Notes: generated by a model not told the origin, from the sequence alone. A stretch of DNA of 52,696 nt from Candidatus Woesearchaeota archaeon (GCA_964598635.1 CAZRCO010000001.1:1-52696), one strand, 5' to 3'; numbered from the stretch's first letter, positions 10,329 to 47,488 are shown. Program-made: numbers and translations.

Positions 10329-10607
10329 TCATCTGACTAATTTTTTTATATTTTCTATACTATCTGCAACTTCTCTACCCTTTTTGGTTAGCTTTATTAG
10401 TTTAACTCGCCCCTTTTTTTCAAAAACAACTAACCCTAAACTCTCCAAAACCTGCAGAATCTTCACGGCATGGCTATACGTGCAGTCCACTTCCTTAGCC
10501 AAAAGACTACCATATCTCATCCTTGTGTTCTTTTTAAGAAAAACCAACATCAAAGCTGGCTTCCTTCTGAAAAAAATGTCAAAATTATCCTTCATTTTGG
10601 AACACAT
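10329..10607 (-). CDS. Winged-helix transcriptional regulator (ArsR/MarR-like)
   Basis: 92 aa. LAKEVDCTYSHAVKILQVLESLGLVVFEKKGRVKLIKLTKKG has the HTH-plus-wing pattern. Confidence 0.55.
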   Translation of the reverse strand: MCSKMKDNFDIFFRRKPALMLVFLKKNTRMRYGSLLAKEVDCTYSHAVKILQVLESLGLVVFEKKGRVKLIKLTKKGREVADSIENIKKLVR

Positions 10608-10712
10608 ATGTTTTATTACATATATCCAGATAGGTATTTACTTTTAAATGTTTCGAAATAGTAAAATGGGGGATTCAAAACCTATAAAAACTTGTTTTCT
10701 TCCATTAAAATC

Positions 10713-13079: not shown

Positions 13080-13273
13080 AAAGGAAGAAATGTATTATAA
13101 ATAATGGATAAGAATTATAATGGGGTTTCTTGGGAAGATGTTTACTCTAATGAAGAACTAAGAAAATCCACACAAATTGATGCCTATTTCTTCAGAGAAT
13201 GTGAAGTCAAATTAAGAAATGAGAAAAGAAAACAAGAAGCATTAGCAAGAAATTCTTTGGATAATTTAACTAC

Positions 13274-14488: not shown

Positions 14489-14530
14489 TTTAATCTTAAT
14501 AGTAGAAACTTCAAACTTTATATTTTTATA

Positions 14531-29384: not shown

Positions 29385-29422
29385 GCACTAAAACTTATAA
29401 ATTTTAAAATCTTATTGAATTT

Positions 29423-30517
29423 ATGTATAAAAGAGGTATTTCTGGGATTGTAGTCGCTTTAATATTAATTTTGCTTTCATTGGTTGCTGCAGGAATTGTT
29501 TGGGCAGTTATCAAAAATATTCTTACAAAAGAAACAGAAGAGATTTCTTTAGGAAAATTCCTCATTGATTTGGAAATAGAAAAAGCGTATTTTGGGGGAA
29601 ATGGTATTATTGTAAATATCAAAAGAAATGTGGGGGGTGGGGACCTAACAGGAATAAATTTTATTGTATCAGATGGAGAAAATAGTAAGGTAATAAAAAG
29701 AAAAATAAATTTACAAGAATTAGGAAAAAGCAATTTTAACCTTTCTCAACAAGAATTTGAAGGATTGGGATTTATTAAAGAAGTTTCAATAGCCCCAATA
29801 GTCAAACTGGAATCTGGAAAAGAATCCGAGGGTAATATTGTAGACACCAAAGAAGTTTCTGCTAAAGAGTTCCTTGTAAGCCTTGGAGCAGTTTCTTGGT
29901 GGAGACTTAATGGTAATGCTAAAGATGAGATTGGAGGAAATAGTGGAACCTTGCAAGGAGGAGTTAATTGTGATATTCCAGGAAAATTTAGTAAAAGCTG
30001 TGAATTTTTTCAAGAGGATGAAGGTGGTAACTATAGGGAAGATTATATTGAACTTTCATCACCAATCCAGTATGATATTCCTTGGACAGTATGCTCCTGG
30101 GTTTATTTAAAACAAAATTTTCCAGATAGAGCACATGTATTTTTAGATGATAGTGATGGTGAAAGTGCTGATCTTTACTCCTTAAGATTTTCTATGCATA
30201 ATAATACGAAAGCAGGATTTACTGATTATCTTGTACAAGATTACTATCTTAATTATGAATTTCCTATAAAAGAATGGAAATTTGCTTGTTATATAGGAAA
30301 TCTAAGTGGTGTTTATCTCTATGTAGATGGGCAGTTTAAAGATAAAAACCCCGATATTATTAAACTTCCTGTTAAATATGTAGCTCACAGTCCTCTTCGT
30401 AGCAATGTTACATCGGGAACCCCTCATGGGACTATCGGTATAATAGATGAAATTATGATATTTGATAAAGACTTATCTTCAGAAAATGTGGAATCTTTAT
30501 ATAAATTAATGAACTAA
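29423..30517 (+). CDS. Type IV pilin-like surface protein, paralog A: class III signal peptide, stalk type 1, LamG/concanavalin-like head
   Basis: MYKRG|ISGIVVALILILLSLVAAGIVW resembles the archaeal prepilin/archaellin N-terminus KRG-IS-hydrophobic. Head motifs are typical of LamG: AVSWWRLNGNAKDEIGGNSGTLQGG...W..CSWVYL...IDEIMIFDKDLSSENVESLY. Confidence 0.7.
   Translation: MYKRGISGIVVALILILLSLVAAGIVWAVIKNILTKETEEISLGKFLIDLEIEKAYFGGNGIIVNIKRNVGGGDLTGINFIVSDGENSKVIKRKINLQELGKSNFNLSQQEFEGLGFIKEVSIAPIVKLESGKESEGNIVDTKEVSAKEFLVSLGAVSWWRLNGNAKDEIGGNSGTLQGGVNCDIPGKFSKSCEFFQEDEGGNYREDYIELSSPIQYDIPWTVCSWVYLKQNFPDRAHVFLDDSDGESADLYSLRFSMHNNTKAGFTDYLVQDYYLNYEFPIKEWKFACYIGNLSGVYLYVDGQFKDKNPDIIKLPVKYVAHSPLRSNVTSGTPHGTIGIIDEIMIFDKDLSSENVESLYKLMN
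29435..29550 (+). repeat. 116-nt segment identical to 34303..34418 (direct repeat; 5' ends of paralogs A and B)
   Basis: I aligned it by eye base by base: ggtatttctgggattgtagtcgc...acagaagagatttcttt in both copies. Confidence 0.85.
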
Positions 30518-32157
30518 TTAATATTTTTAAAAATCTCATCTAAATTTATTTCAAATAAAGACACAGGCATTTTTATTTTCCAGTTCCTAAGAATTTTGGG
30601 GTAAACTTCCCCGATAAATCCTATTTTTTTATTATTAAATATTACTTCAGCTACCCTTCCGTCAACAAAATAAGGTGGGAATTCATTTGATTCCTGCAAA
30701 CTTACCTTCATATTAACCACCCTGAAAAAATATTCTAAAATCTGCTTTATTTCTGTGAAATTTCCTGGACTAACTGCTACAGCAAGATTTTCCTGTTCCT
30801 GGATTTTATTACCTGGAAGAAAAACTTTTCCTATTTCAAAAATCCTTTGAGGATAATCTGAATCTGTATTTTCTGATAAAATTTTAAGTAAAAAATGAGC
30901 CAAATCCTGCCTCAGAATTTTATAATCTGTTTTTGATTCCTCAACTTCAATAAGATTAATTTTTCCCTTTTTGGAAATTCCCATCTTTGCTAACTGATCA
31001 TTAGCATTAGTTAAATGATAATTCGATATCTCCAATATATTTAATCCTGTAAGAATTTCTGAAAGTTTCCTCTTAATGAATTCTCTTACATTCTCCTGTC
31101 CAATAGTGGAAATCTTAGGAATTTCTGGTATAAAATTCTCATAACCATATGCTATTGCAATATCTTCAATTAAATCAACTTCATGAAGAATATCCACTCT
31201 CCATGCAGGAATTTTCACAGTCTTTTTTTCATAATCATAACCCATTTTTTCAATCAATTTTTTAATTTCTTTTTCATTAAGCTCTAAACCTAAAAGCTTA
31301 TTTGTATTTTCTATGGAAATTTCCCTGGTTTCTGGCTTCAGGTCAGGGGTTATCTTCTTTCTTCTATATCTTAAACCCATCTGGAAAATATTCCCCCCCA
31401 TATCTGCAAGAACAGTTACAATTATATTAAGACATTTCTCTAAAATCGTCATATCAAAACCAGAACATTCAATAAAAATATCTCTTGTCTTCTCTGTTAT
31501 TTTTCCTGTTAATTGTGAATTAATTATTGGGGGCATACTTAAAACGTTTCCTCCCGAATCTACAAAAATTGGGAACTTAGCTTTTCCTGCCAGAAGGGAA
31601 GCATATTTTTTTCCTGTTGGATGTCTTCTAAGAATTTCAAAGGCAGACATTTCTCTGTCAGATTCCAAAGGAATAAATTTTATCTTGTCTGGTTCTAATG
31701 CTTTGAATGTTATTGGCAGTTTAATTTTTTCCAGGGGATAAATTCCTATAGCAACCTTTCTTCTTTTTCTGCCAAGAGTAATATGCAATTTTTCCTGTAT
31801 TTCCATTAACTCTTTTATTTTCTCAGAATTAAATCTCAATTTTTTAACAATTGCACAGGCCGTATAAGGACGAATATTTTTAACAGATGAGTCTATTATA
31901 ATTTTATAATCCTTTTCTGGTTTGTTTACTTTATAAGTCTTCAGACCTGTTTTTTTTCCTAGGAAGGCAAGAAAGGATCTCTTGAACCCCTCATAAGAAA
32001 GTAAATCCGGGCGATTTGGAAAAATTTCTATCTGAATTTCTTTATCATTAATACTTTCTATTGGTGTTCCAAACATGGCAATTTTTTGTTTCATTCCCTC
32101 TTCTAATTTTCCAATCTCTTTCTCAAATTTTCTTTTATTGATATTTATTATCGCCAT
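30514..32157 (-). CDS. pheT: Phenylalanyl-tRNA synthetase beta subunit (archaeal type)
   Basis: 547 aa. FPNRPDLLSYEGFKRSF, with B3/B4- and B5-like regions. Adjacent to pheS. Confidence 0.85.
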   Translation of the reverse strand: MAIININKRKFEKEIGKLEEGMKQKIAMFGTPIESINDKEIQIEIFPNRPDLLSYEGFKRSFLAFLGKKTGLKTYKVNKPEKDYKIIIDSSVKNIRPYTACAIVKKLRFNSEKIKELMEIQEKLHITLGRKRRKVAIGIYPLEKIKLPITFKALEPDKIKFIPLESDREMSAFEILRRHPTGKKYASLLAGKAKFPIFVDSGGNVLSMPPIINSQLTGKITEKTRDIFIECSGFDMTILEKCLNIIVTVLADMGGNIFQMGLRYRRKKITPDLKPETREISIENTNKLLGLELNEKEIKKLIEKMGYDYEKKTVKIPAWRVDILHEVDLIEDIAIAYGYENFIPEIPKISTIGQENVREFIKRKLSEILTGLNILEISNYHLTNANDQLAKMGISKKGKINLIEVEESKTDYKILRQDLAHFLLKILSENTDSDYPQRIFEIGKVFLPGNKIQEQENLAVAVSPGNFTEIKQILEYFFRVVNMKVSLQESNEFPPYFVDGRVAEVIFNNKKIGFIGEVYPKILRNWKIKMPVSLFEINLDEIFKNIN

Positions 32158-32226
32158 GGTAAGACCCCTACCCTGTGCTGGTTTGAGACAGGATCAACTT
32201 CCCTTTTATTTAATTTTATTTCCATT

Positions 32227-33744
32227 TTATTCCTTTATCCAAAATTTAATTTTTCTTAACTGCTCAATATTATTCTTATACAAATCTCTTAAATCTTCTA
32301 TTTCATAATAATCCATTAAAATTCGGTCAAATCCCGGCCCCCAAGCAAGCACAGGAATATTTTGTCCTAAAAGAGGAACAGTAACCTCAGGTCTAAAAAT
32401 ACCAGCCCCCCCTAATTCTAACCATGCGTCTTTTTTTGGATGCCATATATCTATTTCAACACTTGGTTCAGTATATGGAAAGTAAGCTGGCCTGAATCTC
32501 ACTTTTTTAAAACCCATTTTCTCAAAGAATTCCTGCAAATATCCGAGTAAATTTCTAAAATTAGCATTTTTATCAATAACAATTCCCTCTGTCTGGTTAA
32601 ACTCAAAACCATGACTCCAGTCAAGAGTTTCATTTCTAAAGCATTTTCCTAATGCAAAGAATTTTGCTGGCAAATCTTCTGGTTTAAGTTTAGCCAGAGT
32701 TTGAGAAGATAAGCATGTGGTATGCGTTCTTAATACTAATTTTTTAGCTTCTTCTTCATCCCATTCATATTGCCACCCTTTACTGCCGGAGACACCACTT
32801 TCATGAGATTTTTTAACAGATTCTACTATTTTTTTATCTGGAAGTTCGCCCTTTTGAACTTGATTAGATATGAAAAATGTATCCTGCATTTCTCTAACAG
32901 GATGGTCTTGCGCTGTAAAAAGTGCATCGAAATTCCAGAAAGAACTTACAATTAAAGGTCCTGTCATTTCCTTAAATCCCATATCTGTCCAGATTCTTCT
33001 GGCATAGTCTACAGCCTGATTTACAAAATGCCTTTTTCCTCCATTAATTTCAGGAACAGGGGAAATAACATCATATCTTCTAAATTTTTTTCCTTTCCAC
33101 AATTTTTCATTTCTCAAAATCTCGGGAGTTATTTGCTCTATTAACGGCCGTGTTTTCAGTTTTGAATGAATTACCTTTTTCCCGAGTTCAGTTATTTCAA
33201 TGCCAATTATTTTTTTATCCCTAAGTTTTACTATTTCTTTTCTTTTCAACAGAGACTTTAAAACAGAAAGTTGCTCAGGAGATAAGGAATCATAATTAAG
33301 AGGAAGAGATTCAATAAAAATTTCCTCTGGCATTTTTCTAGCTATTTCTGCCTTATTAACATTAAGAATCATTTTTTTACTCCTTAATTCAATCATAGAT
33401 TTTTTCTTCAAGATTCCAATAGAGACCTTAAATTCCCCATCTGACAAACCCTTCCTTGCTTCATCAAAAGACAAAATTCTTCTTTCATTTAAAACATTTA
33501 AAAGCCTTCTTTCGGGTAAACCCTTTTTCCTGTATAACGCCCCATTAATTCCAATTTCAATTATCTTTTTAGTTTTATAGGAAAGTCTTATTATTTTCTT
33601 GTTTTGCAAATATTCCAAAGCCCTTAGAACAGAAGTCTTATCCAAATTAGATTTCTTACAAATATCAATTATCTCCTCTTCTAAATACGGAAGGATTTTC
33701 ACTTCATTAGGGCTTAAAGATTCAATTATCTTACCTATGTCCAT
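32227..33744 (-). CDS. pheS: Phenylalanyl-tRNA synthetase alpha subunit (archaeal/eukaryotic type)
   Basis: 505 aa. N-terminal winged-helix repeats, class II core HPVREMQDTFF, FRNETLD and GGAGIFRPEV. Confidence 0.9.
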   Translation of the reverse strand: MDIGKIIESLSPNEVKILPYLEEEIIDICKKSNLDKTSVLRALEYLQNKKIIRLSYKTKKIIEIGINGALYRKKGLPERRLLNVLNERRILSFDEARKGLSDGEFKVSIGILKKKSMIELRSKKMILNVNKAEIARKMPEEIFIESLPLNYDSLSPEQLSVLKSLLKRKEIVKLRDKKIIGIEITELGKKVIHSKLKTRPLIEQITPEILRNEKLWKGKKFRRYDVISPVPEINGGKRHFVNQAVDYARRIWTDMGFKEMTGPLIVSSFWNFDALFTAQDHPVREMQDTFFISNQVQKGELPDKKIVESVKKSHESGVSGSKGWQYEWDEEEAKKLVLRTHTTCLSSQTLAKLKPEDLPAKFFALGKCFRNETLDWSHGFEFNQTEGIVIDKNANFRNLLGYLQEFFEKMGFKKVRFRPAYFPYTEPSVEIDIWHPKKDAWLELGGAGIFRPEVTVPLLGQNIPVLAWGPGFDRILMDYYEIEDLRDLYKNNIEQLRKIKFWIKE

Positions 33745-33783
33745 ATTACCTTTAAATGATTTGCATTAAAAAGTTTTATTATC

Positions 33784-34239
33784 TTATAAATCTTTTATCA
33801 TCCAAGTAGGCATACTAAGAACAGAGCCTAATGATTTTATATCATACCTGTCTCTCCAATTTTTCTTATCAACAGAAATAAATCTCATTTTTAATTTATT
33901 CTTTTTGCAAAGTTTAATGTTCTGCGCAACACGAGCCAGAATTTCGGATTTGTTTTTCTGACTTGAATTTATGATTTCATCCAAATTTATTCCGATAGTT
34001 ACATTATTTTTTTTAGCAATTTTTGCCATAACCTGATTAAACCCGGAATCTCTTTGTTTTAACCTGTCTTTTCTGCCTAATTGATTTAAGAGAAGAACAT
34101 CTATCTTTCCTTTTTCCAGAATTTTCCTGTTTAATTCATTATCACTGCTCAAAAAAATAATCTCTTTGCCCTGATTTTTCCTTATCTCACTTCTGGCTTT
34201 TTCAAAATTATTTGACCAGATTAAAAAAGAATCTTTCAT
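33784..34239 (-). CDS. rnp3: RNase P protein component 3 (Rpp30)-like, short form
   Basis: RDSGFNQVMAKIAKKNNVTIGINLDEII...ILARVAQNIKLCKKNKLKMRFIS...DIKSLGSVLSMP resembles the C-terminal two thirds of archaeal Rpp30 as I remember it. Only 151 aa. Confidence 0.5.
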   Translation of the reverse strand: MKDSFLIWSNNFEKARSEIRKNQGKEIIFLSSDNELNRKILEKGKIDVLLLNQLGRKDRLKQRDSGFNQVMAKIAKKNNVTIGINLDEIINSSQKNKSEILARVAQNIKLCKKNKLKMRFISVDKKNWRDRYDIKSLGSVLSMPTWMIKDL

Positions 34240-34290
34240 TTTATAATAAAAATAATAGATTTTTTAAACTTTTAAATCATTCTAAAAGGT

Positions 34291-34722
34291 ATGGATAAAA
34301 AGGGTATTTCTGGGATTGTAGTCGCTTTAATATTAATTTTGCTTTCATTGGTTGCTGCAGGAATTGTTTGGGCAGTTATCAAAAATATTCTTACAAAAGA
34401 AACAGAAGAGATTTCTTTCGGAAGTTTTTTTCTGGATTTGCAAATACAAAAAGTGAATGTAGAAAGGGATCAGATTAAAGTTACTGTAAAAAGGGGGGCG
34501 GGAGACGGAGAAACTGAGATAACTGGGATAGCTTTTATTATTTCTGATGGTGAAAAGAGCCAGACAATTAAAAAAGAAACAACATTAAAAGAGCTAGAAT
34601 ATGAAACTTTTACCATCTCTTCCTCTGAATTTGCAGATATCGCATTTGTTAAAGAAATTTTAATTGCTCCCGAAATCATTTCTGAAAGTGGAAAGGAAGA
34701 ATTTGGAAGAGAAGCGGATAAG
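34291..34722 (+). repeat. About 430-nt module (signal peptide plus stalk type 2), an inverted repeat of 42530..42964
   Basis: Most positions are identical by eye, including an 84-nt perfect run (34324..34407 versus 42848..42931). Similarity stops right after the GREADK codons. Confidence 0.8.
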
Positions 34723-35358
34723 ATTACTGATAAAGACTCAAAAGAACTCACATTAGAAAATCAATGGTGGACAAAAAATCCAGAAGAAATAAAAATCTTA
34801 ATTATCGAAAGAAGAAGTGAAACAGGTTGGACGGATGAGATAAATAACTTAGGATATAATATAGAAATAAAAGATTCAATAAATTCAAAAGAAGAACTGG
34901 AAAATTATCTGTCTACATTAGGGGAAAATGAAAAGCCAGATATAATTGCATGCATTGAAACTGCTTGGAGTTGTTCTAAATATAATCTGCTCAACTCCCT
35001 TTATGATTCTGGTTATTATATATTTACTGAAGGAAATGATAACACAGCATTAATTTACCCTATTTTAACTTCGGAATATACAACCTCTTCAGCAGGAAAG
35101 ATATTATCTACCAATGAAGGATGTGCTGAACCCCTAATTTATGGGTGGACAGAAACTTCAAATTCTGGAGGAGATTCTAGGAGGGGAACTTTAAGTGTTC
35201 ATCCTAAAGCCTGCTCAATTGCAAAAGATAACACTTTAAATTATATAGAAGCGATTTATCTGGAAGAATCTGGAAAAGGGAGATGGTATCATCATCAGCC
35301 AAACAGTATCGCCCCAGAAGAATTAATTAATAATTTTTTAAAGTATCTTTCTAGATAA
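34291..35358 (+). CDS. Type IV pilin-like surface protein, paralog B: class III signal peptide, stalk type 2, unassigned head domain
   Basis: MDKKG|ISGIVVALILILLSLVAAGIVW. The stalk is near-identical to paralog D. The head (from about residue 145) has alternating hydrophobic-strand and helix patterns (KILIIERRS..., DIIACIE..., YYIFTEGNDN). Confidence 0.7.
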   Translation: MDKKGISGIVVALILILLSLVAAGIVWAVIKNILTKETEEISFGSFFLDLQIQKVNVERDQIKVTVKRGAGDGETEITGIAFIISDGEKSQTIKKETTLKELEYETFTISSSEFADIAFVKEILIAPEIISESGKEEFGREADKITDKDSKELTLENQWWTKNPEEIKILIIERRSETGWTDEINNLGYNIEIKDSINSKEELENYLSTLGENEKPDIIACIETAWSCSKYNLLNSLYDSGYYIFTEGNDNTALIYPILTSEYTTSSAGKILSTNEGCAEPLIYGWTETSNSGGDSRRGTLSVHPKACSIAKDNTLNYIEAIYLEESGKGRWYHHQPNSIAPEELINNFLKYLSR

Positions 35359-35360
35359 TT

Positions 35361-36050
35361 TTATCCTGAAATAACAGTTCCTTTAAATTTCCTATTATTC
35401 AACAGATTGTCAAGCTGTTTTAAATCTTTTCCAAGTATATATGTTATAATTTCATTTTTTAATATAATAGCTGATGCTGTTTGATCTAATACGAAATGCT
35501 GTCCTGGTTTAAACTTTCCTCTATGTGTCATTTCAAAAAAATTTCTCCATGAAATTTTAGGTATAAATTTGGCATTTTTATACTTCAAAGGATTTCTATT
35601 ATACAATCCAGATACATTTGTCAAATTTATAAAATCTGTCTTGAAATGTTTTGCAAGTTCTGCAGATGTTGAGTCAGAAGTTTGCTTTGGTCTATACTCC
35701 AAGGCTCCGCAAAAAACAACATCCTGTTCTCTTATATCACTTTCAACTTTTTTGAGAGTATGAGGAATCCCTTGTTTTGGGTTTATTTTGAAAATATAAC
35801 TCATAAACCTAGCGTTCGTTCTTGTCGCACTAATGCCAGAAAAGCTCTGAAATTCCTCATTTAATCCTAATTTCCTTAATGCGTTAATATATTTTCGTGC
35901 AACACTTCCTCCACCGCAAACAATAATAAATTTGTGTTTTTTAGTATTTTTTAAAATAACTCTTTTAAATTCCTTAAGAAATTTCAAATCTATTTTTTCA
36001 GGAACAATCAAGCTTCCGCCCAAACTTAACACGATAAACCTCTTTTTCAT
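35361..36050 (-). CDS. pyrH: Amino-acid-kinase-fold enzyme, probably archaeal UMP kinase
   Basis: 229 aa. LSLGGSLIVP, IVCGGGSVARKYI and GISATRTNA. Confidence 0.55.
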   Translation of the reverse strand: MKKRFIVLSLGGSLIVPEKIDLKFLKEFKRVILKNTKKHKFIIVCGGGSVARKYINALRKLGLNEEFQSFSGISATRTNARFMSYIFKINPKQGIPHTLKKVESDIREQDVVFCGALEYRPKQTSDSTSAELAKHFKTDFINLTNVSGLYNRNPLKYKNAKFIPKISWRNFFEMTHRGKFKPGQHFVLDQTASAIILKNEIITYILGKDLKQLDNLLNNRKFKGTVISG

Positions 36051-36086
36051 AAAGAAAAAAGAACTTCCCGGTTTTTATATTTTCCT

Positions 36087-36368
36087 CTATTTAACTGTAA
36101 ATAACTTATTATTTCTCACGTCGAATACATCCAGCCTAACACCGGCATCCAACCATCCATGAGCATAATTCAAAGAAGCAAAGGAATTTACATAATCCCT
36201 GTCTTTCCGAAAATATTCTGCATCTGAGAGATAATTTGAAACCATATCAATTATTTCTTTAGCATATTTTTCCTTGCCTTTAATTACCTTTTTTTTAGCT
36301 TCCCTTAACGCAGCAAAAGTAATTTTAAAATACTTATTAAGTTTTTGTTTTGTTATCTTGTTTTCCAT
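36087..36368 (-). CDS. DUF357-like small helical protein
   Basis: YLSDAEYFRKDRDYVNSFASLNYAHGWLDAGVRL fits my memory of DUF357. Confidence 0.5.
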   Translation of the reverse strand: MENKITKQKLNKYFKITFAALREAKKKVIKGKEKYAKEIIDMVSNYLSDAEYFRKDRDYVNSFASLNYAHGWLDAGVRLDVFDVRNNKLFTVK

Positions 36369-36466
36369 TTTTATTTTACTATATAATTATAATTTTTAAC
36401 TTTATCTGTTAATTACTTGTCTGTATAACAAAAAAGCTTTTAAATTCTATTAAGTTTCAATATAAA

Positions 36467-36748
36467 ATGAAAAAAGAGTTTGGGCTGGGGCAAAATAAAA
36501 GGATTATTTGGATATTAATATCTGTTATAATAGCTCTCTCTTTATTATTAATTTATTTGCTTGCTATAAGACCTGCAATAAGTGGTTATATAATTAATGC
36601 ACAAAATCAAGGATATGCTGCTGCAGTAATTTCAATTATGCAACAAGCTGTAACTTGCCAGACAGTTCCATTAACTTTTGGAAATCAAACTATCAATTTA
36701 ATTGCTATTGAATGCCTCCAACAACCACAAGTTAATCTTCAAGGATAA
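36467..36748 (+). CDS. Small membrane-anchored protein
   Basis: 93 aa, one TM segment (IIWILISVIIALSLLLIYLLAI). Ends 35 nt upstream of paralog C. Confidence 0.4.
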   Translation: MKKEFGLGQNKRIIWILISVIIALSLLLIYLLAIRPAISGYIINAQNQGYAAAVISIMQQAVTCQTVPLTFGNQTINLIAIECLQQPQVNLQG

Positions 36749-36753
36749 AATAA

Positions 36754-36767
36754 TTTATAAATATAAA
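36754..36767 (+). promoter_or_regulatory. TATA-like box for paralog C (short or absent leader)
   Basis: TTTATAAATATAAA is centred about 24 nt upstream of the ATG at 36784. Similar TTTATAAA-type boxes sit 20-35 nt upstream of the ATGs of paralogs A, B and D. Confidence 0.35.
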
Positions 36768-36783
36768 ATTCTATCATAGATTA

Positions 36784-37917
36784 ATGAGTAAAAGAGGTAT
36801 TTCTGGAATTGTAGTTGCTTTGATACTGATTCTTTTGGCATTAGTTGCAGCAGGAATTATTTGGGTTGTTATAAGAAGTACTGTCTCTGAAGGAGTAGAA
36901 GAAGTTTCTTTGGGAAAATTCCTGATTGATTTAAACATAGAAAGGGCTTATATTGAAGGTAATAATCTCGTTGTAAATGTAAAGAGAAATCCAGGAGCAG
37001 GAGATTTAATTGCAATAAATTTTGTTGTCTCTGATGATTCAGAAACTGAAGTAGTCAGGCAGGATACAGACCTGAATGAATATGAAGGAAGAGAATTTAA
37101 TTTTACTTTACAAAATATAAATCTCAGTTCTATAAAAGAAATTTCTGTTGTCCCTGTTTATGTTTCCGGGGGTAAAGAAACTTTGGGAAGTATAACTGAT
37201 ACTTATAATGTAGGAGAAGAATCTCTTGAAGAAATTGAAGGAGATGGTATTGGTGAGACAGGAGGAACATGCACTGATGAAGAAACACAATCCTGTCCTT
37301 TCCAAAACGGAGTTTGTTCTGGTTCTTTACAAACATGTACTGGGGGAAGCTGGCCAGGATGTGATTATACTCCAATATCTGAATATGAATTGACAGAAAT
37401 AACTTGTAATGATGGTTTAGATAATGACTGTGATGGAAATACAGATACTGCAGACTCAAACTGCCAAATATCGGGATGTACCCCTGCTCCAGACCCAACA
37501 CTTCCCGGAATCTGTGGAGCAAGAGAATGTGGAAATGCTGAAAATGGAACTTGTGGAACAGTTAGTTGTGGGGATTGTCAACAATTATACGGTTCAGTAT
37601 ATATCTGCGATACAGACACAGGACAATGTGTTGTAGAAACTTCAGTTAATTCTGGAATCATTTATTCAGTTTGGCCTTCTGATGCTCCGAAATATCTTGA
37701 AAGTGAGAACTTGCCAAAATCCTCTGAAGGATACAATTATATTGGGTATTTTGTTAAATTCCCCGGCTCTGCTGAAACAGGTTGTATAATGATAACTTAT
37801 TTTGATTATCTGGCACAAAATGATAGAAGTTACATCAGGCTGGACAGAGTTGCTACAATAGCTTCCCCAGATAACTATGAAATATGGGCAACACAACAGG
37901 GATGCGAGGGAGTATAA
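36784..37917 (+). CDS. Type IV pilin-like surface protein, paralog C: class III signal peptide, stalk type 1, Cys-rich head
   Basis: MSKRG|ISGIVVALILILLALVAAGIIW. The stalk is similar to A (SLGKFLIDLNIERAY...). The head has about 18 Cys by my count and includes CNDGLDNDCDGNTDTADSNC. Confidence 0.7.
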   Translation: MSKRGISGIVVALILILLALVAAGIIWVVIRSTVSEGVEEVSLGKFLIDLNIERAYIEGNNLVVNVKRNPGAGDLIAINFVVSDDSETEVVRQDTDLNEYEGREFNFTLQNINLSSIKEISVVPVYVSGGKETLGSITDTYNVGEESLEEIEGDGIGETGGTCTDEETQSCPFQNGVCSGSLQTCTGGSWPGCDYTPISEYELTEITCNDGLDNDCDGNTDTADSNCQISGCTPAPDPTLPGICGARECGNAENGTCGTVSCGDCQQLYGSVYICDTDTGQCVVETSVNSGIIYSVWPSDAPKYLESENLPKSSEGYNYIGYFVKFPGSAETGCIMITYFDYLAQNDRSYIRLDRVATIASPDNYEIWATQQGCEGV

Positions 37918-37952
37918 CTAGTGCAAATTCTGATAAATTCTTAACAGAACTC

Positions 37953-38669
37953 TTAATAAATTCTTGTTTGAGGGAGAGGCATCATTTTCTTAATCACAAA
38001 CTTTGTCCCGATTACATCTGAAATTATTGCTGATAAAATTAATTTTCCAATTACTACTTTATAAATCCCAAAATCTATAGGGATTTTAGATACTTCAGAA
38101 AATTTATCTATTATTTCATCAATTTCTTCTCTATTAAGTATTATATTTGTAGGCTTAACCCCCATTGAGCCTATAACAACAATTCTTTTTTCAGGACCAT
38201 TGCACTCTATGGTTTTCACCGCAGGGTCTTTTATTAAAGGGTTCAATTTACCTAAATCTACTTGTCTCTCACCAGGAACTGGTCTAAGATACTGAAATTC
38301 AGGAGGAAGTTTTGGTTCTGGTATTCTTAAAACATAATCTGGTCTTATTTTTAATGGTGGTCTTGGAATTACTTTTGGGGTAATTTCTCGTCTCAGGGGC
38401 TTTGAAATAAGTGATGTTGTGGGTATCGTAGGCATTGAGATAAGGGGCTTTGATATGGGCATTGATGGTGTTGAAGGAAGTAATTTTGAGATTGGTGGTT
38501 TTCCGATTTCCCCTTCTTTCCTAATACCTTCTCTAACCTCTCTTTCTAAAGTTTTTTTTAATTCCAGAATTCTCCCTTCTCCTGAATTTTTGATTAATTC
38601 TTTTGTAAACGTTATTAGAAAAAAGGCTCTTTTTTCTTGGGATTCCAAATCCAAAGATTGTTTTGCCAT
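37953..38669 (-). CDS. Proline-rich protein ending in a FlaI/PilB/VirB11-type secretion-ATPase N-terminal domain, with no ATPase domain
   Basis: The C-terminal 90 or so aa, DPAVKTIECNGPEKRIVVIGSMGVKPTNIILNREEIDEIIDKFSEVSKIPIDFGIYKVVIGKLILSAIISDVIGTKFVIKKM, align by eye with the conserved D-P-x-[VL]-x-D-I-x-x-N-G...T-N...E-E...F-x-I-R-K block that precedes the Walker A domain in this ATPase family. The ORF stops 11 aa later. Confidence 0.45.
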   Translation of the reverse strand: MAKQSLDLESQEKRAFFLITFTKELIKNSGEGRILELKKTLEREVREGIRKEGEIGKPPISKLLPSTPSMPISKPLISMPTIPTTSLISKPLRREITPKVIPRPPLKIRPDYVLRIPEPKLPPEFQYLRPVPGERQVDLGKLNPLIKDPAVKTIECNGPEKRIVVIGSMGVKPTNIILNREEIDEIIDKFSEVSKIPIDFGIYKVVIGKLILSAIISDVIGTKFVIKKMMPLPQTRIY

Positions 38670-38671
38670 TT

Positions 38672-39193
38672 TTAATAAACTCTTTCTTGTTCGAATTCTT
38701 CTGGAGAAGAAATAGACTTTTGATATTCTTCTGAACTAACTTCTTTACCCTGACTTTGAGGAATTCTTTGTTTTGATTGAACTGTGGTTGGTATCCCCCT
38801 CATTTCTGTTCCTGTTCTGGTCTCCGCCCCTGTAACTGTTCTTTGATTCGTCTCATGCAACAATGTCAGACCTCTCGAAATAATTTTATTTTGTTCCAGA
38901 AGATTATCCAGTTTTTTCTCAATCTCTTTACTTCCCATTCCTGACTTTTCTGAAAAATCTTTTTTCATAATTGTTTTGGCAGAAAATTCAAATAATTCAA
39001 GCAACTTGGATATTTGCTTGCTAAGTTCTTCAAACTTTAAGGACAAATTTGTCATTACTTTCTGCATAGAAACAAAATTTTCGATGAGGATTCTTTCGGT
39101 GTTTCTATTCTTTTTTGAAAGTGAAGATTTACTTGCACTTCGCCCGGTTTTTGAGCCCTTTTTTGAACTTTTTTTTGAACCCCTTTTCACCAT
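38672..39193 (-). CDS. Hypothetical coiled-coil protein with basic N-terminus
   Basis: 173 aa, MVKRGSKKSSKKGSKTGRSASK..., then heptad-like segments. Ends 2 nt before the next ORF. Confidence 0.45.
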   Translation of the reverse strand: MVKRGSKKSSKKGSKTGRSASKSSLSKKNRNTERILIENFVSMQKVMTNLSLKFEELSKQISKLLELFEFSAKTIMKKDFSEKSGMGSKEIEKKLDNLLEQNKIISRGLTLLHETNQRTVTGAETRTGTEMRGIPTTVQSKQRIPQSQGKEVSSEEYQKSISSPEEFEQERVY

Positions 39194-39250
39194 ATTTTAA
39201 ATAAAGCATAGTTATTTATAAATTTTTAGAATTGCTTAAAAAAGAATTGT

Positions 39251-41758
39251 TTAGAAAATGTCTAAAACTTTTTCATCATTACCTGCTTCTGAATATGCAT
39301 ATTTGTTTTCTTCAGATTCTGTTTCTTCACTTTCCTGGAAATTTTCAAGAGGAAGAGACTCTGTTACAATCTTTTCTTCTTTATTTCCCTCAGGAGTTAA
39401 ATTCTCGGTTTTTGTAGATTCTGAAGGCAAAGACTTTAATGGACCTTTATCATTTCCTCCCTCCAAATTTTTCTCCAAATCTCTGGTGTAATTAGCTATA
39501 TCTGCTGCCATATCTGCATTAACACTTATGCTATCAATTCCTCTTTCAACTAAAAATTTAACCATATCTTTTCTACTTCCTGCCTGTCCGCAGATACTTG
39601 TCTCAACATTATATCTCTTACATATTCTTATTACGTATTCCAATTGATATAAAATTGCGGGATTCATTTCGTCATATAAACTCTGCACTTCCTCATTCCC
39701 CCTATCAACAGCCAGAGTATATTGAGTTAGATCATTAGTTCCAAAAGATACAAAATCTATTCCTTCATCACACAAATCTTTTATTAATTGAACAGATGCC
39801 GGAGTCTCTATCATCACTCCCACTTTTGCTCTTGGAAAATCTATTTTTTTCAAAAATTCTTTTACTTTTTTAACTTCATCAACAGCAATAATCTGCGGCA
39901 ACAATAAACCAATTTCCTTGTTCTGTTTTGAGATTCTTTTTAATGCCTTAAGCTCTGCACTTAATATTTCTGGTTTTTTTATGCCTGCTCTAATACCATG
40001 CATTCCTAACATTGGATTTATTTCAACTTTTTTCGGAGCTCCTTCCAAATTCTTAAATTCATCACTTCTAATATCTGAAGTTCTAACCCACAAACTGTCA
40101 AAAAATTTAGAAATTTCACTTACTCCTTTGTAAATTATTTCTTCATAGTCTCCAATTTTATTTTTTGCCAGAAAATAATTTGGATGCTTTCCTGATTCAG
40201 CAATAATTCCCTCAATTCTTAATAATCCAACTTCTTTTATATCTGATTTAGCAGCTCTTTTTGCAAAACTTGGTAAGTCAATTATAACTTTTATTTTGGT
40301 TTTTGTTTTCACGTTTACCGGCAAAACTTCTTTTTTCTCTGATTCTGCAATTTTTCCTTTGTATACTTTTCCTGTATATCCATCCACAGTTATTACTTCT
40401 CCCTCTTTTAATTTCATTGTAGCTTCTTTGGTTCCGACAATAGCAGGAATTCCCATCTCCCTGGAAACAATCGCAGCATGTGCTGTAAGCCCCCCTTCAT
40501 CTGTTACAATAGCAACAGACTTTTGCATTGTAACAACCATGTCTGGATTTGTCATCTTAGTTACCAATACATCCCCCTCACCAACTTTCCCCAAATCTCC
40601 TAAATCCAAAACAATTTTTACTTTCCCAGAACCAATTCCGGGAGAAGCACCAAGTCCCTTTAATATAATCTCTCCTTTAATTTCTCCTATAGACTCTTTC
40701 TCAACTCTTTTTTCAAGAGTTGTTATTGCCCTGGTTTGGACAATATAAATCCCTTCGCCTTCAATTGCAAATTCTATATCCTGGGGTTTTTTGTAGTGTT
40801 CTTCTAATTTCAGTGCAAACTCAGCAAGCTTATTTATCTCAAATTCCTTTAATACCTGTAAATGAGACTTTTCCTCAGGCAGTTTTATCTCAATTTTTTT
40901 TCCTCCAGGGTCTTTTGTTATAGCAATTTTTTTGTCTGCGATTTCTTTTTCAAGTATTTCAAAATCTTTTGACACTATATATCTATCAGGACTGATTCTG
41001 CCAGAAACAATACCCTCTCCCAAACCAAAAACAGCTTCAATTATTATATTATCATTTTTAAAAGACGGATCTTTTGAAAAAATAACCCCTGACTTATCCG
41101 AATCAACCATTTTTTGAACTACAACTGCAAGCCCTGCATCATGCTTAAATCCTTTCTTCTGTCTGTAATATGTCGCACGGGCAGTGAATAAAGATGCAAA
41201 ACATTCTTTTATTTTCAATAGTAGCTCTTCATTACCATGCACATTTAGAAAAGTTTCCTGCTGTCCTGCAAAACTTGCATCTTCTAAATCTTCTGTTGTT
41301 GCACTGCTCCTAACAGCAACAAAATTATATTCTGACTTTTTTTCAATGATATCCAAAGCTGTCCTTTCTTTTTCCTCTCCGCCAGAATCTTCAATATCCA
41401 GATTTTCGTAAGATTCAATAATCTCCTCTTCCAAATCTTTAGGCAGTTTTGAATTTACTATCAGTTGTCTAATTTGTTTTGTAGTATTTTCCAACTTTTT
41501 GGTATTTTCATAATTTATTTTTTCAAGAAGTTCCTTAATTTTTCCCTGTACACCGGATTTTTCTATAAAATAATTATATGCCTGAACTGTAACAACAAAA
41601 CCAGGGGGGACAGGAATTTTTAGATTATAAATCTCCCCTAAATTAGCTCCTTTTCCTCCAACAATGTTACCAGAATTCCTGTTCAGTTCAGAAAACCACT
41701 TAATAAAATCTTTCCTTTCACTTCCCCCTTTTTCACCAGCCTCTTTTTTCTCTGGCAT
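39251..41758 (-). CDS. ppsA: Phosphoenolpyruvate synthase (pyruvate, water dikinase) with acidic C-terminal tail
   Basis: GGKGANLGE (ATP-grasp N-domain), phospho-His domain GGLTAHAAIVSREMGIPAIVGT, and PEP-utilising TIM barrel FVSFGTNDLTQYTLAVDR. Confidence 0.9.
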   Translation of the reverse strand: MPEKKEAGEKGGSERKDFIKWFSELNRNSGNIVGGKGANLGEIYNLKIPVPPGFVVTVQAYNYFIEKSGVQGKIKELLEKINYENTKKLENTTKQIRQLIVNSKLPKDLEEEIIESYENLDIEDSGGEEKERTALDIIEKKSEYNFVAVRSSATTEDLEDASFAGQQETFLNVHGNEELLLKIKECFASLFTARATYYRQKKGFKHDAGLAVVVQKMVDSDKSGVIFSKDPSFKNDNIIIEAVFGLGEGIVSGRISPDRYIVSKDFEILEKEIADKKIAITKDPGGKKIEIKLPEEKSHLQVLKEFEINKLAEFALKLEEHYKKPQDIEFAIEGEGIYIVQTRAITTLEKRVEKESIGEIKGEIILKGLGASPGIGSGKVKIVLDLGDLGKVGEGDVLVTKMTNPDMVVTMQKSVAIVTDEGGLTAHAAIVSREMGIPAIVGTKEATMKLKEGEVITVDGYTGKVYKGKIAESEKKEVLPVNVKTKTKIKVIIDLPSFAKRAAKSDIKEVGLLRIEGIIAESGKHPNYFLAKNKIGDYEEIIYKGVSEISKFFDSLWVRTSDIRSDEFKNLEGAPKKVEINPMLGMHGIRAGIKKPEILSAELKALKRISKQNKEIGLLLPQIIAVDEVKKVKEFLKKIDFPRAKVGVMIETPASVQLIKDLCDEGIDFVSFGTNDLTQYTLAVDRGNEEVQSLYDEMNPAILYQLEYVIRICKRYNVETSICGQAGSRKDMVKFLVERGIDSISVNADMAADIANYTRDLEKNLEGGNDKGPLKSLPSESTKTENLTPEGNKEEKIVTESLPLENFQESEETESEENKYAYSEAGNDEKVLDIF

Positions 41759-41842
41759 GTTAAAAAAGAAATTATAAAAGTTAATAAAGGTTTTTGTTAA
41801 CTTTTTTGTTAATTCAAAAGAACGATTATTTTCTGGATAAAA

Positions 41843-42964
41843 TTAACTTAAATCTAAATTATAGAGTCCTTTAACTTGTTGTTCCATGAGGGCTTTATTA
41901 AAAATCATTACTTCATCTATCTGGCCTTTAAAATAACCTTTTCCTGTAGGGCAACCGCTGTTAACTCCTCCCCCAATCTTTACATTTTCACTATTTGTAA
42001 TAACTAAGTTTCCACTAGTAATATCCTGCGAATCAAGTTCCCCATCAATATATGTTTTTTGTTCAGATGTATTAATATCATAACTAAAGGCTAAATGTTT
42101 CCATTCATCAGCAGAAGCTGGTGAATCAGTCCATAATCTATATGTGTCATCTTCTAATTTTAGAGTAAAACCAACTTTCCCTTGGGGACTCCAATCAGCT
42201 TCCCAGATTAAATGATATACTCCCCAATCTCCTTTGTTTAATAAATATCTCCAATTATTATTGTCATTACAATCCATTCCAGAACTTGGCTTTATCCACA
42301 TAACAAGAGTAATCCCTTCTCTAATGTCCAAACTTTGGTCATTTCCTACATCTACATAATCATCATTCCCGTCAAAATTTGCAGCTTGACCAAAATTACT
42401 ATCAATAAAACCTATACCCCCTTGCGTTGTCCCATGATTTCCTCCAATTTCATCGCTTGAATCTCCGTCAAACTTCCACCAAGAGACAGCTCCTAAATTC
42501 TCTAAAATTTGCTTGGTTGAAAACTCTTCTTTATCTGCTTCTCTTCCAAATTCTTCCTTTCCACTTTCAGAAGTGACTCCAGGAGCAATTAAAATTTCTT
42601 TAACAAATGCTATATCCCCAAGTTCAGAATAAGAAATAGTAAAAGTTTCATATTCAAGCTCTTTTAATGTTGTTTCTTTTTTGATTGTCTTGCTCTTTTC
42701 ACCATCAGAAATAATAAAAGCTATTGAAGTCATCTCGGTATCTTCACTTCCTGACCCTCTTTTTACTGTAACCTTCACATCACCATTATCTTCGGTTTTA
42801 ACTTTTTGTATTTGCAAATCCAGAAAAAAACTCCCTAAAGAAACCTTTTCTGTTTCTTTTGTAAGAATATTTTTGATAACTGCCCAAACAATTCCTGCAG
42901 CAACCAATGAAAGCAAAATTAATATTAAAGCTACTATAATTCCAGAAATACCTCTTTTATACAT
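41843..42964 (-). CDS. Type IV pilin-like surface protein, paralog D: class III signal peptide, stalk type 2, LamG/concanavalin-like head
   Basis: MYKRG|ISGIIVALILILLSLVAAGIVW. The stalk IAFIISDGEKSKTIKKETTLKELEYETFTIS...SESGKEEFGREADK is almost the same as B. The head reads AVSWWKFDGDSSDEIGGNHGTTQGG...FDGNDDYV...WKHLAFSYD...IDEVMIFNKAL (LamG pattern). Confidence 0.7.
   Translation of the reverse strand: MYKRGISGIIVALILILLSLVAAGIVWAVIKNILTKETEKVSLGSFFLDLQIQKVKTEDNGDVKVTVKRGSGSEDTEMTSIAFIISDGEKSKTIKKETTLKELEYETFTISYSELGDIAFVKEILIAPGVTSESGKEEFGREADKEEFSTKQILENLGAVSWWKFDGDSSDEIGGNHGTTQGGIGFIDSNFGQAANFDGNDDYVDVGNDQSLDIREGITLVMWIKPSSGMDCNDNNNWRYLLNKGDWGVYHLIWEADWSPQGKVGFTLKLEDDTYRLWTDSPASADEWKHLAFSYDINTSEQKTYIDGELDSQDITSGNLVITNSENVKIGGGVNSGCPTGKGYFKGQIDEVMIFNKALMEQQVKGLYNLDLS
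42530..42964 (-). repeat. Inverted copy of the signal-peptide plus stalk type 2 module (partner 34291..34722)
   Basis: See the partner feature. It also shares an 84-nt perfect run with paralog A (29456..29539). Confidence 0.8.
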
Positions 42965-43036
42965 ACCTTTTTATAAGAGATTAAAGTTTATAAAATTATT
43001 AGTTAGTTTTATAAATTCATTTTTATTTTATTTATC

Positions 43037-45433: not shown

Positions 45434-47488
45434 TTATTTTTTTCCTCCTTCTAATCTCTTAAGAAATTCACTTATAAATTTTTTATCCTCTCCCCTAACC
45501 TTTCTAATATCTTTTATAATATAAGCTTCAACATCTTTCATATTACATTTTTCTGTTTTTACATCAGAAAGTAGCTTCTCTCTGGCTTCCTTGCTTAACA
45601 GAACCTCTCCTTCTGAAACTGCTGAAAGTTTCTTTGCTGTATTTATTAATGTTCCCAGACTCATAAATTTCAATCTATCTTTATCCTGTTTTGCAACAAT
45701 CTGGCCGGTATGCAAAGAAACCCCAAATTCTATTTTTTGTTTTGCTAATTTATTATAATCTTTTAAGAATTCTGAAATTTTCTCTGCAACATCCACTGCT
45801 ATTCTTTCGTTTTTGAATGTTTTTGTTTTTATTGGAGCAATTATAAAGAATATATTATCCTGATTCTCATAAGTAAATGCTTTACTATTTTCCGCTATAT
45901 TAATTACATTTTGTAAAGTCTCTAAAACATTTCCTTTTCTTAAATCTATATCCTTAAGATTTTTTATCTTAATACATACGACACTTGTGTTTTGTTTATC
46001 TCCTTTAAGAGATAAAGAAAGTTCTGCCTTATTTTTAGCTCCAGACATTAAACTTCCACTATAAGATTTAGAGGAAATCAATTTTTCTCCAATAGCGCCC
46101 CTGCCTGTCATTTCCCCTACTCTTTTCCTTTTTCCGGGGAGAAATCTTCCAAAAAAACTTCTCTTATATCCCTTCGTGAAAACCATAAATAATACAAATC
46201 CCAAAACAAGTATTATAAAAATCCAGACAAAAGGATATCTCAATAAACCAACCCCTGAGCCTTCTTTAATATCTATCACTTTTCCTGTCAACATTGTTCT
46301 TTCACTAAATATTTTCTCTTCATCATCCATCACTTCAACATGATATTCTCCATCCGGGGCAGTTAAAATATATTTTTGGACTTTATCAACTTCCAAATAA
46401 ACATCTAATTTCAATGATTCATTTCCTATTTTAATAATAAGGCTTCTGTTATATGGAACGTTCCCCACATTTGTTATTGTAACACTTTCATTAATTAACT
46501 CAACTTTAACACCTTCTTTCTCCTGTATTGTAAATGTTGCTTCACTTGTTAATCCGTTTGAACTGGCAAGAACTTTCCAAACTGCCGGAGGCTGATTATA
46601 CGCAATTGGAAGCTCAAATAGTTCATCTGTCATTTTTTCAGTTTGTTCAAAAATTTCACTTTTATTATTTTTTACAGTCAAAACTGCATTTGATTCTATC
46701 TTTTCTCCAGTCTGATCATGAAGAATTGCTTTAACTTGCAGACTTGTACCCGGCTCTACTTCCTGATTATTAAATAAAATTTCCAAACTTGTAGGCACCT
46801 GTAGTATCTGCAAGTTGTAATTTCCAAAGCCCTGGTTTGTTCTTTCATCATATTTATCTATCTCATACACATTAATCGCAATAATATATTTACCAGCTTT
46901 AAGATCATTAGGAAGAGATATATTCACAGAAAAAAAACCATTCCTTACAGTATCTGTTTTTGTTAATACTGAAGAATTCCCTTCTCTTATTTCTAAATTC
47001 ACAAAACCACTTTTGACCGCTTCTCCATTTTCTTTAATCGCCTCTCCTTCTACTAACACACTCTCGCCGGGTTTAAATTCTTCTTCATTGCTTAAAATTT
47101 CCAATATTATCAAATTTGATACTTCAAATTCCTCTGTTATTTCAGGCTCAAAACCTTCTAAAGAAAATTTTACAACACAATGGCCTGTTGTTCTTCCTAA
47201 ACGTTCTTTAGTCAAAATAAAAGAGAGTGCTATTGTCTCTTGTTCTCCACTGGAAAGAATGATGTCCTTTGAAAAGACAGTATTTTGCAAACCGTTACAG
47301 ATTACGTATACATCAAGAGAACTTTTTAAATCCTCAAGGGTGCTTATTTTAGCATTTGTATTTACAACATCTCCAATATTAAAGGGTCCTTTTGGAGATT
47401 CACTTAAAGTAATTTCAGCAGCAGAAATAACAGATATAAGAAAAACTGCAAGGATTAAACTTAATACCACTCTTTTCATTCTATACAA
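45434..47488 (-). CDS. Receptor-like single-pass membrane protein: signal peptide, about 400-aa Ig/MG-like ectodomain, TM, cytoplasmic class III nucleotidyl-cyclase-like domain (degenerate)
   Basis: The cytoplasmic tail (residues about 501-639) follows the cyclase-homology pattern: VVCIKIKNL (in place of F-x-D-I-x-G-F), QDNIFFIIAP, FGVSLHTGQIVAK and FMSLGTLINTAKKLSAVSEGEVLLSKEAREKL. Confidence 0.5.
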   Translation of the reverse strand: MYRMKRVVLSLILAVFLISVISAAEITLSESPKGPFNIGDVVNTNAKISTLEDLKSSLDVYVICNGLQNTVFSKDIILSSGEQETIALSFILTKERLGRTTGHCVVKFSLEGFEPEITEEFEVSNLIILEILSNEEEFKPGESVLVEGEAIKENGEAVKSGFVNLEIREGNSSVLTKTDTVRNGFFSVNISLPNDLKAGKYIIAINVYEIDKYDERTNQGFGNYNLQILQVPTSLEILFNNQEVEPGTSLQVKAILHDQTGEKIESNAVLTVKNNKSEIFEQTEKMTDELFELPIAYNQPPAVWKVLASSNGLTSEATFTIQEKEGVKVELINESVTITNVGNVPYNRSLIIKIGNESLKLDVYLEVDKVQKYILTAPDGEYHVEVMDDEEKIFSERTMLTGKVIDIKEGSGVGLLRYPFVWIFIILVLGFVLFMVFTKGYKRSFFGRFLPGKRKRVGEMTGRGAIGEKLISSKSYSGSLMSGAKNKAELSLSLKGDKQNTSVVCIKIKNLKDIDLRKGNVLETLQNVINIAENSKAFTYENQDNIFFIIAPIKTKTFKNERIAVDVAEKISEFLKDYNKLAKQKIEFGVSLHTGQIVAKQDKDRLKFMSLGTLINTAKKLSAVSEGEVLLSKEAREKLLSDVKTEKCNMKDVEAYIIKDIRKVRGEDKKFISEFLKRLEGGKK

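Follow-up and report, generated by a model that had tools for sequence, protein, structure and literature searches.

Scattered archaeal genes for candidate modular type IV pilin-like proteins with a constant N-terminal module and exchangeable heads

The stretch of DNA analysed here, called the window throughout, comprises 52,696 nucleotides (52.7 kb) from Candidatus Woesearchaeota archaeon (GCA_964598635.1 CAZRCO010000001.1:1-52696) and contains four scattered genes, A to D (Table 1), whose products begin alike and end differently. The four open reading frames (ORFs) that the original prediction had placed in this region were all found, and their products start with M-x-K-[KR]-G-ISGI[IV]VALILILL[SA]LVAAGI[IV]W. 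This motif opens a common module of about 146 residues (aa) with a mean column identity of 72% in the alignment of A-D; beyond residue 146 or so the four sequences diverge completely and are unrelated, and the heads start within about 10-20 residues of the end of the module. A six-frame motif scan of the window returned no fifth copy of the N-terminal motif. The earlier description of a four-member family is right as a count for the window, but the four genes represent a local sample of a very large family of Pacearchaeota and Nanoarchaeia.

Table 1. Coordinates of genes A-D and of features associated with them, counted from the first nucleotide of the window
Feature	Coordinates	Strand	Size	Description
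Gene A	29423-30517	+	364 aa	Pilin-like module aa 1-146 (nt 29423-29860), LamG head aa 147-364
Gene B	34291-35358	+	355 aa	Pilin-like module aa 1-148 (nt 34291-34734), unannotated alpha/beta head aa 149-355 (fold tentative)
Gene C	36784-37917	+	377 aa	Pilin-like module aa 1-144 (nt 36784-37215), Cys-rich head, C-terminal domain
Gene D	41843-42964	-	373 aa	Pilin-like module aa 1-149 (nt 42518-42964), LamG head aa 150-373
Predicted class III signal, A	29423-29512	+		Leader MYKRG, predicted cleavage after G5, hydrophobic tract I6-I30
Predicted class III signal, B	34291-34380	+		Equivalent to that of A
Predicted class III signal, C	36784-36873	+		Equivalent to that of A
Predicted class III signal, D	42875-42964	-		Equivalent to that of A
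TATA-like box, A	29395-29401	+		TTATAAA, at -28
TATA-like box, B	34262-34268			TTTTAAA
TATA-like box, C	36754-36761			TTTATAAA
TATA-like box, D	42987-42994	-		TTTATAAA
Tract identical in A and B	A 29435-29550 = B 34303-34418	+ (A)	116 nt	Coding-sequence nt 13-128, helix-coding region

The constant module begins in the manner of a prepilin. Class III (prepilin) signals are defined by a short hydrophilic leader with a terminal Gly that is followed by at least 21 hydrophobic residues (PMC9934059), and in all four proteins a short basic leader that closes with K-[RK]-G precedes a hydrophobic tract of about 25 residues. The FlaFind-type processing motif [KR][GA][ALIFQMVED][ILMVTAS] (PMC4371748), applied as a regular expression, reads R/K-G-I-S in A-D and also matches nearly all relatives. 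In particular, K-[RK]-G/[LIM]-S-x-[IV]-[VI]-x-T-L (the slash standing at the predicted cut) is present in 164 of 168 relatives, with Gly at position -1 in 157 and Ser at position +2 in 162 of the motif-bearing sequences. The leaders that precede it range from 4 to 42 residues in these 164 relatives and are not conserved in sequence. Position +5 is Val or Ile. As the motif is invariant at a variable distance from the start, it looks like a processing site, this being the pattern expected of such a site rather than of a plain anchor. The class III signal peptide and hydrophobic helix that had been proposed for A-D can thus be recognized in the four proteins and in the same 164 relatives.

The fold predicted for the module is likewise that of a pilin. 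AlphaFold2, run on full-length B with an alignment of 47 rows, places a helix at residues 6-37 and then an eight-strand beta-sandwich, with strands within residues 50-146, at predicted local distance difference test (pLDDT) values of 80-95. This is the lollipop shape of archaeal pilins, in which a long N-terminal helix carries a globular beta-sandwich. In a Foldseek comparison with the PDB, the top match for the module is 8fk7_A, the subunit of an archaeal type IV pilus of Pyrobaculum calidifontis (E 2.6e-4, 145 aligned columns, 136-residue chain), followed by Halobacterium archaellins (9eq7) and then by generic FN3/Ig domains. A profile built from 132 family sequences matches the 8fk7 chain by sequence as well (E 0.013), with an alignment that runs from the K-G/L site through the helix into the first strands. 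Because the predicted fold and the sequence match of the family profile agree on 8fk7, the beta-rich segment after the helix is, as modelled, the globular domain of an archaeal-type pilin, an Ig-like beta-sandwich. The original prediction, which had suggested this comparison as a check, had taken the segment for a stalk of about 110 aa; its beta-rich nature is real (about eight predicted strands), but it appears to be the pilin's own globular domain and not a spacer.

The heads are of different kinds. A and D have the LamG/concanavalin-like heads that had been assigned to them, both scoring above the gathering cut-off of PF13385, 27.6 bits (A: 36.3 bits, E 7.6e-9, aa 206-356; D: 85.6 bits, E 5e-24, aa 198-365). 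The head of C, in which about 18 Cys and a DNDCDG-type motif had been noticed, contains every one of the 18 Cys of this protein, and its CNDGLDNDCDGNTD stretch resembles, below threshold, NF033662, an acidic double-disulfide repeat (E 6e-6), and MopE (E 0.04); homologues of this head are found in the relatives P0024 and P0025. Sequence comparison of the C and D heads with the PDB returned nothing useful. The head of B, previously left unassigned, has no match in Pfam or NCBIfam. It is poorly modelled in the full-length AlphaFold2 prediction, and the model of the head by itself (predicted TM-score, pTM, 0.74) has weak Foldseek similarity to the IFT52 GIFT domain, to OST48 and to the folds of class I glutamine amidotransferases (GATase1), with a best E of 4e-3; its assignment to an alpha/beta fold is tentative.

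Although rare, with about ten homologues, the B head is informative about its carrier. Indeed, in other archaea the homologues P0172, P0174 and P0177 have N-terminal matches to Pilin_N (PF07790, E 6e-4 to 0.04), and in P0174 and P0177 the B-type head lies between this Pilin_N-like N-terminus and an extra C-terminal domain. The homologues P0173 and P0175 start instead with K-[SA]-Q-x-A-M-E-F-L, in which the Gln at +1 and the Glu at +5 are typical of EppA-processed pilins, in line with the substrate rule for this peptidase (PMC4371748). Since the same cargo rides on three kinds of pilin carrier, there is good evidence that the role of the carrier is display.

The family to which the module belongs is much larger than the window suggests. 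A profile of the 147 module positions, searched against clusters represented at 50% identity, matches 3,112 clusters at E<=1e-3, 1,396 at E<=1e-10 and 286 at E<=1e-30. The retrieval of 3,112 clusters at the first and 286 at the last of these thresholds excludes chance similarity, and by this search the module is a very large family, with at least 3,100 clusters at 50% identity, that lacks curated annotation. A contig scan with a four-sequence profile gave one locus only, the patterns derived from it being too specific. Named members of the family come from Pacearchaeota or Nanoarchaeia, and their records call them 'hypothetical protein', 'LamG domain-containing protein' or, in IMG, 'flagellin-like protein', a label borne by two short members, a headless one of 143 aa and P0180 of 133 aa. 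The best 143 representatives measure 142-1,323 aa (median 368), and 12 of them are headless modules of 142-180 aa; the 61 complete family ORFs at 80 metagenomic loci comprise 4 headless ones, 34 of 191-450 aa and 23 longer ones. When the heads of 132 members were classified with Pfam, LamG_3 was the most frequent (35), followed by Fibrinogen_C (11), COLFI (5), LamG_2 (4), sialidase-N (4), CBM_4_9 (3) and DUF4215 (2), while MAM, Big_7, beta-helix, peptidase M64, MopE, neurotoxin receptor-binding and pentraxin domains were found once each. Nearly all family heads are therefore, by annotation, predicted binding or adhesion folds. The proposal of a constant module joined to variable binding heads extends in this way to the family, in which heads can be exchanged and mostly belong to adhesion or lectin types, and the B head also occurs on other pilin N-termini. 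In one related contig (L006) P0180 is a truncated module (10001-10402, +), and 66 nt further on lies a 637-aa DUF4215/LamG ORF (10468-12381, +) without an N-terminal signal; the pair may represent a modular pilin split by a frameshift or an assembly error, and another family member of 372 aa is found just upstream.

Modules and heads have been exchanged, and the helix has been kept uniform. A and B are identical over a tract (Table 1) in which codons 5-43 have no synonymous change, while directly downstream identity drops to 5 of 15 codons; a run of 84 nt is identical in A, B and D (42848-42931 in D). The A/B tract stays within the helix-coding region and is the signature of gene conversion or recombination. 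The two parts of the proteins also have separate histories. The modules of B and D are 80% identical and their heads unrelated; A and D both have LamG heads, 36% identical, on modules that are 60% identical; and P0002, from another sample, has a module nearest to that of D (68%, versus 53% to A) and a head nearest to that of A (72%, versus 39% to D). Judged by these identities, modules and heads recombine between genes and genomes.

The positions of the family genes vary as well. The conserved backbone consists of ORF162, PheRS beta, PheRS alpha, Rpp30, PyrH, DUF357, orf93 and, further along, PpsA, LemA, M48, orf299, orf684 and TrpRS, with 60-70% aa identity in related contigs, and family genes come and go in its gaps. 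The slot between Rpp30 and PyrH holds B in the window, a B orthologue (80% identity) in L003-L005, and a headless pilin of 157 aa in L018 and L019. In L016 and L017 a headless member of 143 aa lies between PheRS alpha and Rpp30. The slot between PpsA and LemA, which holds D in the window, is empty in L018 and contains two unrelated small genes and no family member in L001, where a LamG member is instead found between orf684 and orf299. Family genes also form tandem triplets in L053, L054 and L056, and in L012 a headless and a LamG member are adjacent. The genes flanking A-D were identified with Pfam as PheRS beta and alpha, RNase P p30, an amino-acid kinase of the PyrH type, DUF357, PpsA and LemA, which supports the earlier statement that the copies sit in gaps between essential genes, but the meaning of this arrangement is that of variable slots in a conserved syntenic backbone, which are ordinary for streamlined genomes. 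In L003, L004 and L005 a 918-aa protein with DUF2341 and LamG domains (11875-14631, +) is encoded between PyrH and DUF357, beside the B-type orthologue, and the window has no such gene there; for DUF2341 proteins of archaeal pilus loci, a role as PilY1-like adhesins of the pilus tip has been predicted (PMC4858521).

Collectively, we consider it reasonably probable (roughly 60%) that A-D are archaeal modular type IV pilin-like proteins that act by the modular-pilin mechanism, and the set probably constitutes swappable surface or pilus adhesins. The prepilin would enter the membrane via its N-terminal helix, and a prepilin peptidase of the FlaK/PibD type would cut the leader off after Gly5. An ATPase of the PilB/FlaI type together with a platform of the TadC/FlaJ type, both encoded elsewhere, would then extract the helix and pull it into the core of a filament or of a short pseudopilus, on which the head would be displayed facing outward, most plausibly at or near the tip and on a shaft made of a headless family member. 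Gene conversion keeps the helices of the paralogues nearly identical, which would let all four use one machine and one filament, and the reshuffling of modules and heads gives each lineage its own adhesin repertoire.

Several results weigh against this mechanism. No recognizable gene for a prepilin peptidase, a PilB/FlaI secretion ATPase or a TadC/FlaJ platform was found in the window, the same outcome as in the original prediction; the neighbourhoods of 11 relatives contain housekeeping genes only and no pilus machinery; and motif scans of limited sensitivity over about 0.83 Mb (827 kb) of the window and related loci gave one secretion ATPase and no A24 peptidase. The curated pilin and archaellin models PF07790 (Pilin_N), PF04021, PF01917 and TIGR02537 found nothing above threshold in A-D or in 132 relatives, and TIGR02537, the archaellin/pilin N-terminal domain, matches only C among A-D (E 0.011, 15.2 bits versus a cut-off of 20). 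The fold scores are modest (TM-score 0.4, target-normalized), with generic FN3/Ig domains close behind. About 90% of the members bear heads and only some 7-8% are headless (12/143; 4/61), which would be unusual if most of them were minor tip subunits. In addition, DPANN genomes are said by one groundwater preprint to lack components of type IV pili (10.1101/2020.05.14.094862), and cleavage and polymerization are steps that we infer in their entirety. The literature on type IV pilus machinery in DPANN or Pacearchaeota is inconsistent: FlaI/J/K or type IV pilus genes have been reported in Woesearchaeota, Nanoarchaeota, Micrarchaeota, Undinarchaeota and Nanohaloarchaeota (PMC8407392, PMC11606122, PMC8561730, PMC7414124, PMC9563170), and unrecognizable 'dark-matter' pilins have been noted in DPANN pilus loci (PMC6393860). 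In favour of the mechanism, the one secretion ATPase found in the scans (L082, 38-1069, +; T2SSE PF00437, E 7.6e-33; PilB3_C domain, E 2.5e-5) is encoded directly upstream of a pilin-like gene of the family (1226-1489, +), on the same strand and at a distance of about 155 nt; both genes lie on a metagenome contig of 1.5 kb. Two GxGD membrane proteins near family members were considered as prepilin peptidases and rejected, as they belong to the presenilin-type signal peptide peptidases (SPP, PF06550) and not to the A24 family. These SPP homologues (L029, 7592-8509, -, E 3e-11; L064, 16159-17085, -, E 1e-13) have eight predicted transmembrane segments and a GGGD motif and lie 5-6 kb from family members, a linkage that may be coincidental synteny.

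The lack of assembly genes, both in the window and in almost every related flank, the preprint and the sub-threshold scores of the curated models would also fit pilin-derived adhesins that form no pilus, in which the helix would be a membrane anchor, with the leader removed or not, and the sandwich a short stalk keeping the head clear of the membrane or S-layer; the bulky heads of most members suit such individually displayed adhesins. We hold this to be rather unlikely, as the strict conservation of K-[RK]-G/[LIM]-S after very variable leaders is hard to explain for a plain anchor, and headless members of 142-157 aa would be left without anything to display. Moreover, one member adjoins a PilB-type ATPase, and the homogenization of the helix by gene conversion among paralogues suggests a common interaction partner. 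Headless members also count for the modular-pilin mechanism in that one of them occupies, in other contigs, the very slot that B takes in the window.

The size of the proteins and the nature of their heads bring to mind yet another structure. Most members are at least three times the size of a pilin, many heads are of carbohydrate-binding types, and in Sulfolobus large proteins with class III signals are assembled into the bindosome by the PilB/PilC homologues of the Bas system (PMC4371748). A-D could, on this precedent, be processed by a peptidase and assembled by PilB/PilC into a short envelope array or pseudopilus that captures nutrients or ligands and does not serve attachment by a long pilus. 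This is improbable, as bindosome subunits took over only the signal peptide whereas the full pilin globular domain is kept here, and no solute-binding (SBP) domain follows the signal in A-D or in 132 relatives according to Pfam, nor do SBP domains or links to ABC transporters occur in the neighbourhoods. Foldseek also matches Halobacterium archaellins, and a headless member is called 'flagellin-like' in IMG, as might be expected of subunits of the motility filament. PF01917, however, stays below threshold (best E 0.036, on P0186), no genes of a fla operon are nearby, and bulky lectin heads would be incompatible with the shaft of an archaellum. It is thus highly improbable that A-D are archaellins, and equally so that they arose by chance or as an assembly artefact, given that the family is too large and too conserved for this and that the same proteins recur on independent assemblies.

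The window is AT-rich (about 31% G+C), and its archaeal housekeeping genes include those for Cdc48, aRF1, RNase P p30, PpsA and several aminoacyl-tRNA synthetases. Where relatives of the encoded proteins are named, they belong to Candidatus Pacearchaeota or Nanoarchaeia, and the genome is a small archaeal one of the Pacearchaeota type. A TATA-like heptamer is found at -28 to -30 of each of A-D, as had been stated for every copy, though just by its resemblance to the consensus; 14 of 43 other genes have such a signal upstream, and it turns up in 4% of random 31-mers. The boxes of A-D are real and, as a third of the other genes carry one, not distinctive. Three other products of the window are of note. 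A 279-aa predicted secreted or membrane protein (19764-20603, +) has three repeats of about 33 aa, GH[PS]x[ST]EI[LE]VTVNGY[ND]VTLQxAIN, and then a Cys-rich C-terminus, with no Pfam match. A 684-aa protein (45434-47488, -) has N-terminal Ig-like/MG2-like repeats (DUF4469, E 2.9e-7), an apparent transmembrane segment and a weak C-terminal match to adenylate/guanylate cyclases (E 7e-4); it is syntenic in L001, with 40% identity, where it adjoins the LamG family member. A 212-aa membrane protein (4951-5589, +) contains SCSMYHQGN, which recalls the S-x-S-M motif of type I signal peptidases, and has no Pfam match at E<=1e-3.

Pacearchaeota have a minimal metabolism, and we know of no attachment mechanism described for them. 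In a groundwater study the large-cell size fraction was unusually rich in them, which points to strong attachment to hosts (10.1101/2020.05.14.094862). DPANN genome papers have reported pilus machinery but "no annotated pilins", and LamG proteins have been regarded as separate, Sec-secreted adhesins (PMC9563170, PMC7414124). In the Pacearchaeota lineage, pilin-like carriers and LamG adhesins appear to be one and the same. A limited literature search found no prior description of the present module family. The architecture that was first proposed for A-D is largely right, with assembly unproven. A bolder idea is that the module family represents the main host-attachment apparatus of Pacearchaeota and Nanoarchaeia, in which one carrier homogenized by gene conversion and dozens of heads would set or switch host specificity, perhaps with a divergent or minimal machinery where type IV pili have been reported lacking; we consider this quite unlikely. 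The modular principle as such will be expected to specialists, and it is the scale of an unannotated family, its gene-conversion signature and its relevance to host attachment in Pacearchaeota that merit follow-up. If true, the modular-pilin mechanism would extend the principle from bacteria to archaea and provide candidate host-specificity determinants for uncultured episymbionts, and a new profile model would be warranted for better annotation of DPANN genomes, the family being invisible to current curated models.

Among known systems, the principle has its counterpart in the bacterial modular pilins, of which a survey counted more than 1,200 in 264 architectures (PMC8179133, PMC9934059), with archaea not mentioned in PMC8179133. 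In Streptococcus sanguinis, the module grafted onto PilC is a ConA-like lectin and that on PilB is of the vWA type (PMC8179133, PMC9934059). As in these two proteins, an N-terminal pilin module, a short linker and a grafted binding module follow one another in A-D, the repertoire of modules is large and varied, and adhesion at the tip has been proposed; with PilC, in particular, A and D also have in common a lectin-type module of the ConA/LamG superfamily. In contrast, PilB and PilC have the IPR012902 N-methylation motif with Glu5, an alpha/beta-roll pilin fold and genes inside the pil locus, whereas A-D have an archaeal-type signal without Glu5, a predicted Ig-like beta-sandwich and dispersed genes, and are known here from sequence and prediction. 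A-D give no match to an N-methylation motif in Pfam or NCBIfam and so fall outside the bacterial definition of modular type IV pilins by IPR012902 and Glu5 (Raynaud et al. 2021, PMC8179133). Because they lack this motif and stay below the curated models, they are filed neither with the bacterial modular pilins nor in the curated archaeal pilin families.

The archaeal systems resemble A-D in other respects. PilA1-PilA6 of Haloferax volcanii are dispersed, lie away from the PilB3/PilC3 machinery and have a nearly identical H-domain (PMC4371748, PMC4858521), which recalls the scattered paralogues with nearly identical helices described here and sets a precedent for pilins encoded apart from the genes that assemble them, and a PilB3_C domain is present in the ATPase beside a relative in L082; the Haloferax pilins, however, are small and headless and match Pilin_N, whereas the present family is below the Pilin_N threshold and mostly head-bearing. 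The best structural matches to the module are 8fk7, from the flagellar-like type IV pilus of P. calidifontis, and 9eq7, the former being also the best match of the sequence profile, but identity is only about 14%, at a TM-score of about 0.4 and a sequence E of 0.013, and the solved subunits have no C-terminal head. With bindosome proteins A-D have in common that they are large archaeal surface proteins with a prepilin-type signal; those of the bindosome depend on PibD and PilB/PilC homologues and are binding proteins of ABC transporters without a pilin globular domain, whereas A-D have a full pilin module and lectin or adhesion heads. A LamG-like domain in an archaeal filament subunit is also known from TafC of the Haloarcula Tat-fimbriae (Tafi; NF052521, PMC11821415), which D matches at E 4e-13. 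TafC identity was rejected for D and A, as D reaches 49 bits and A 14 bits against an equivalog cut-off of 410, in the LamG region only, and Tafi subunits are Tat-exported and not of the pilin type, so that D is not a TafC member (PMC11821415). All in all, A-D are an archaeal variant of the modular-pilin principle, in which the principle is closest to that of the bacterial proteins, the predicted fold is like that of 8fk7 and the genome layout is like that of Haloferax PilA1-6.

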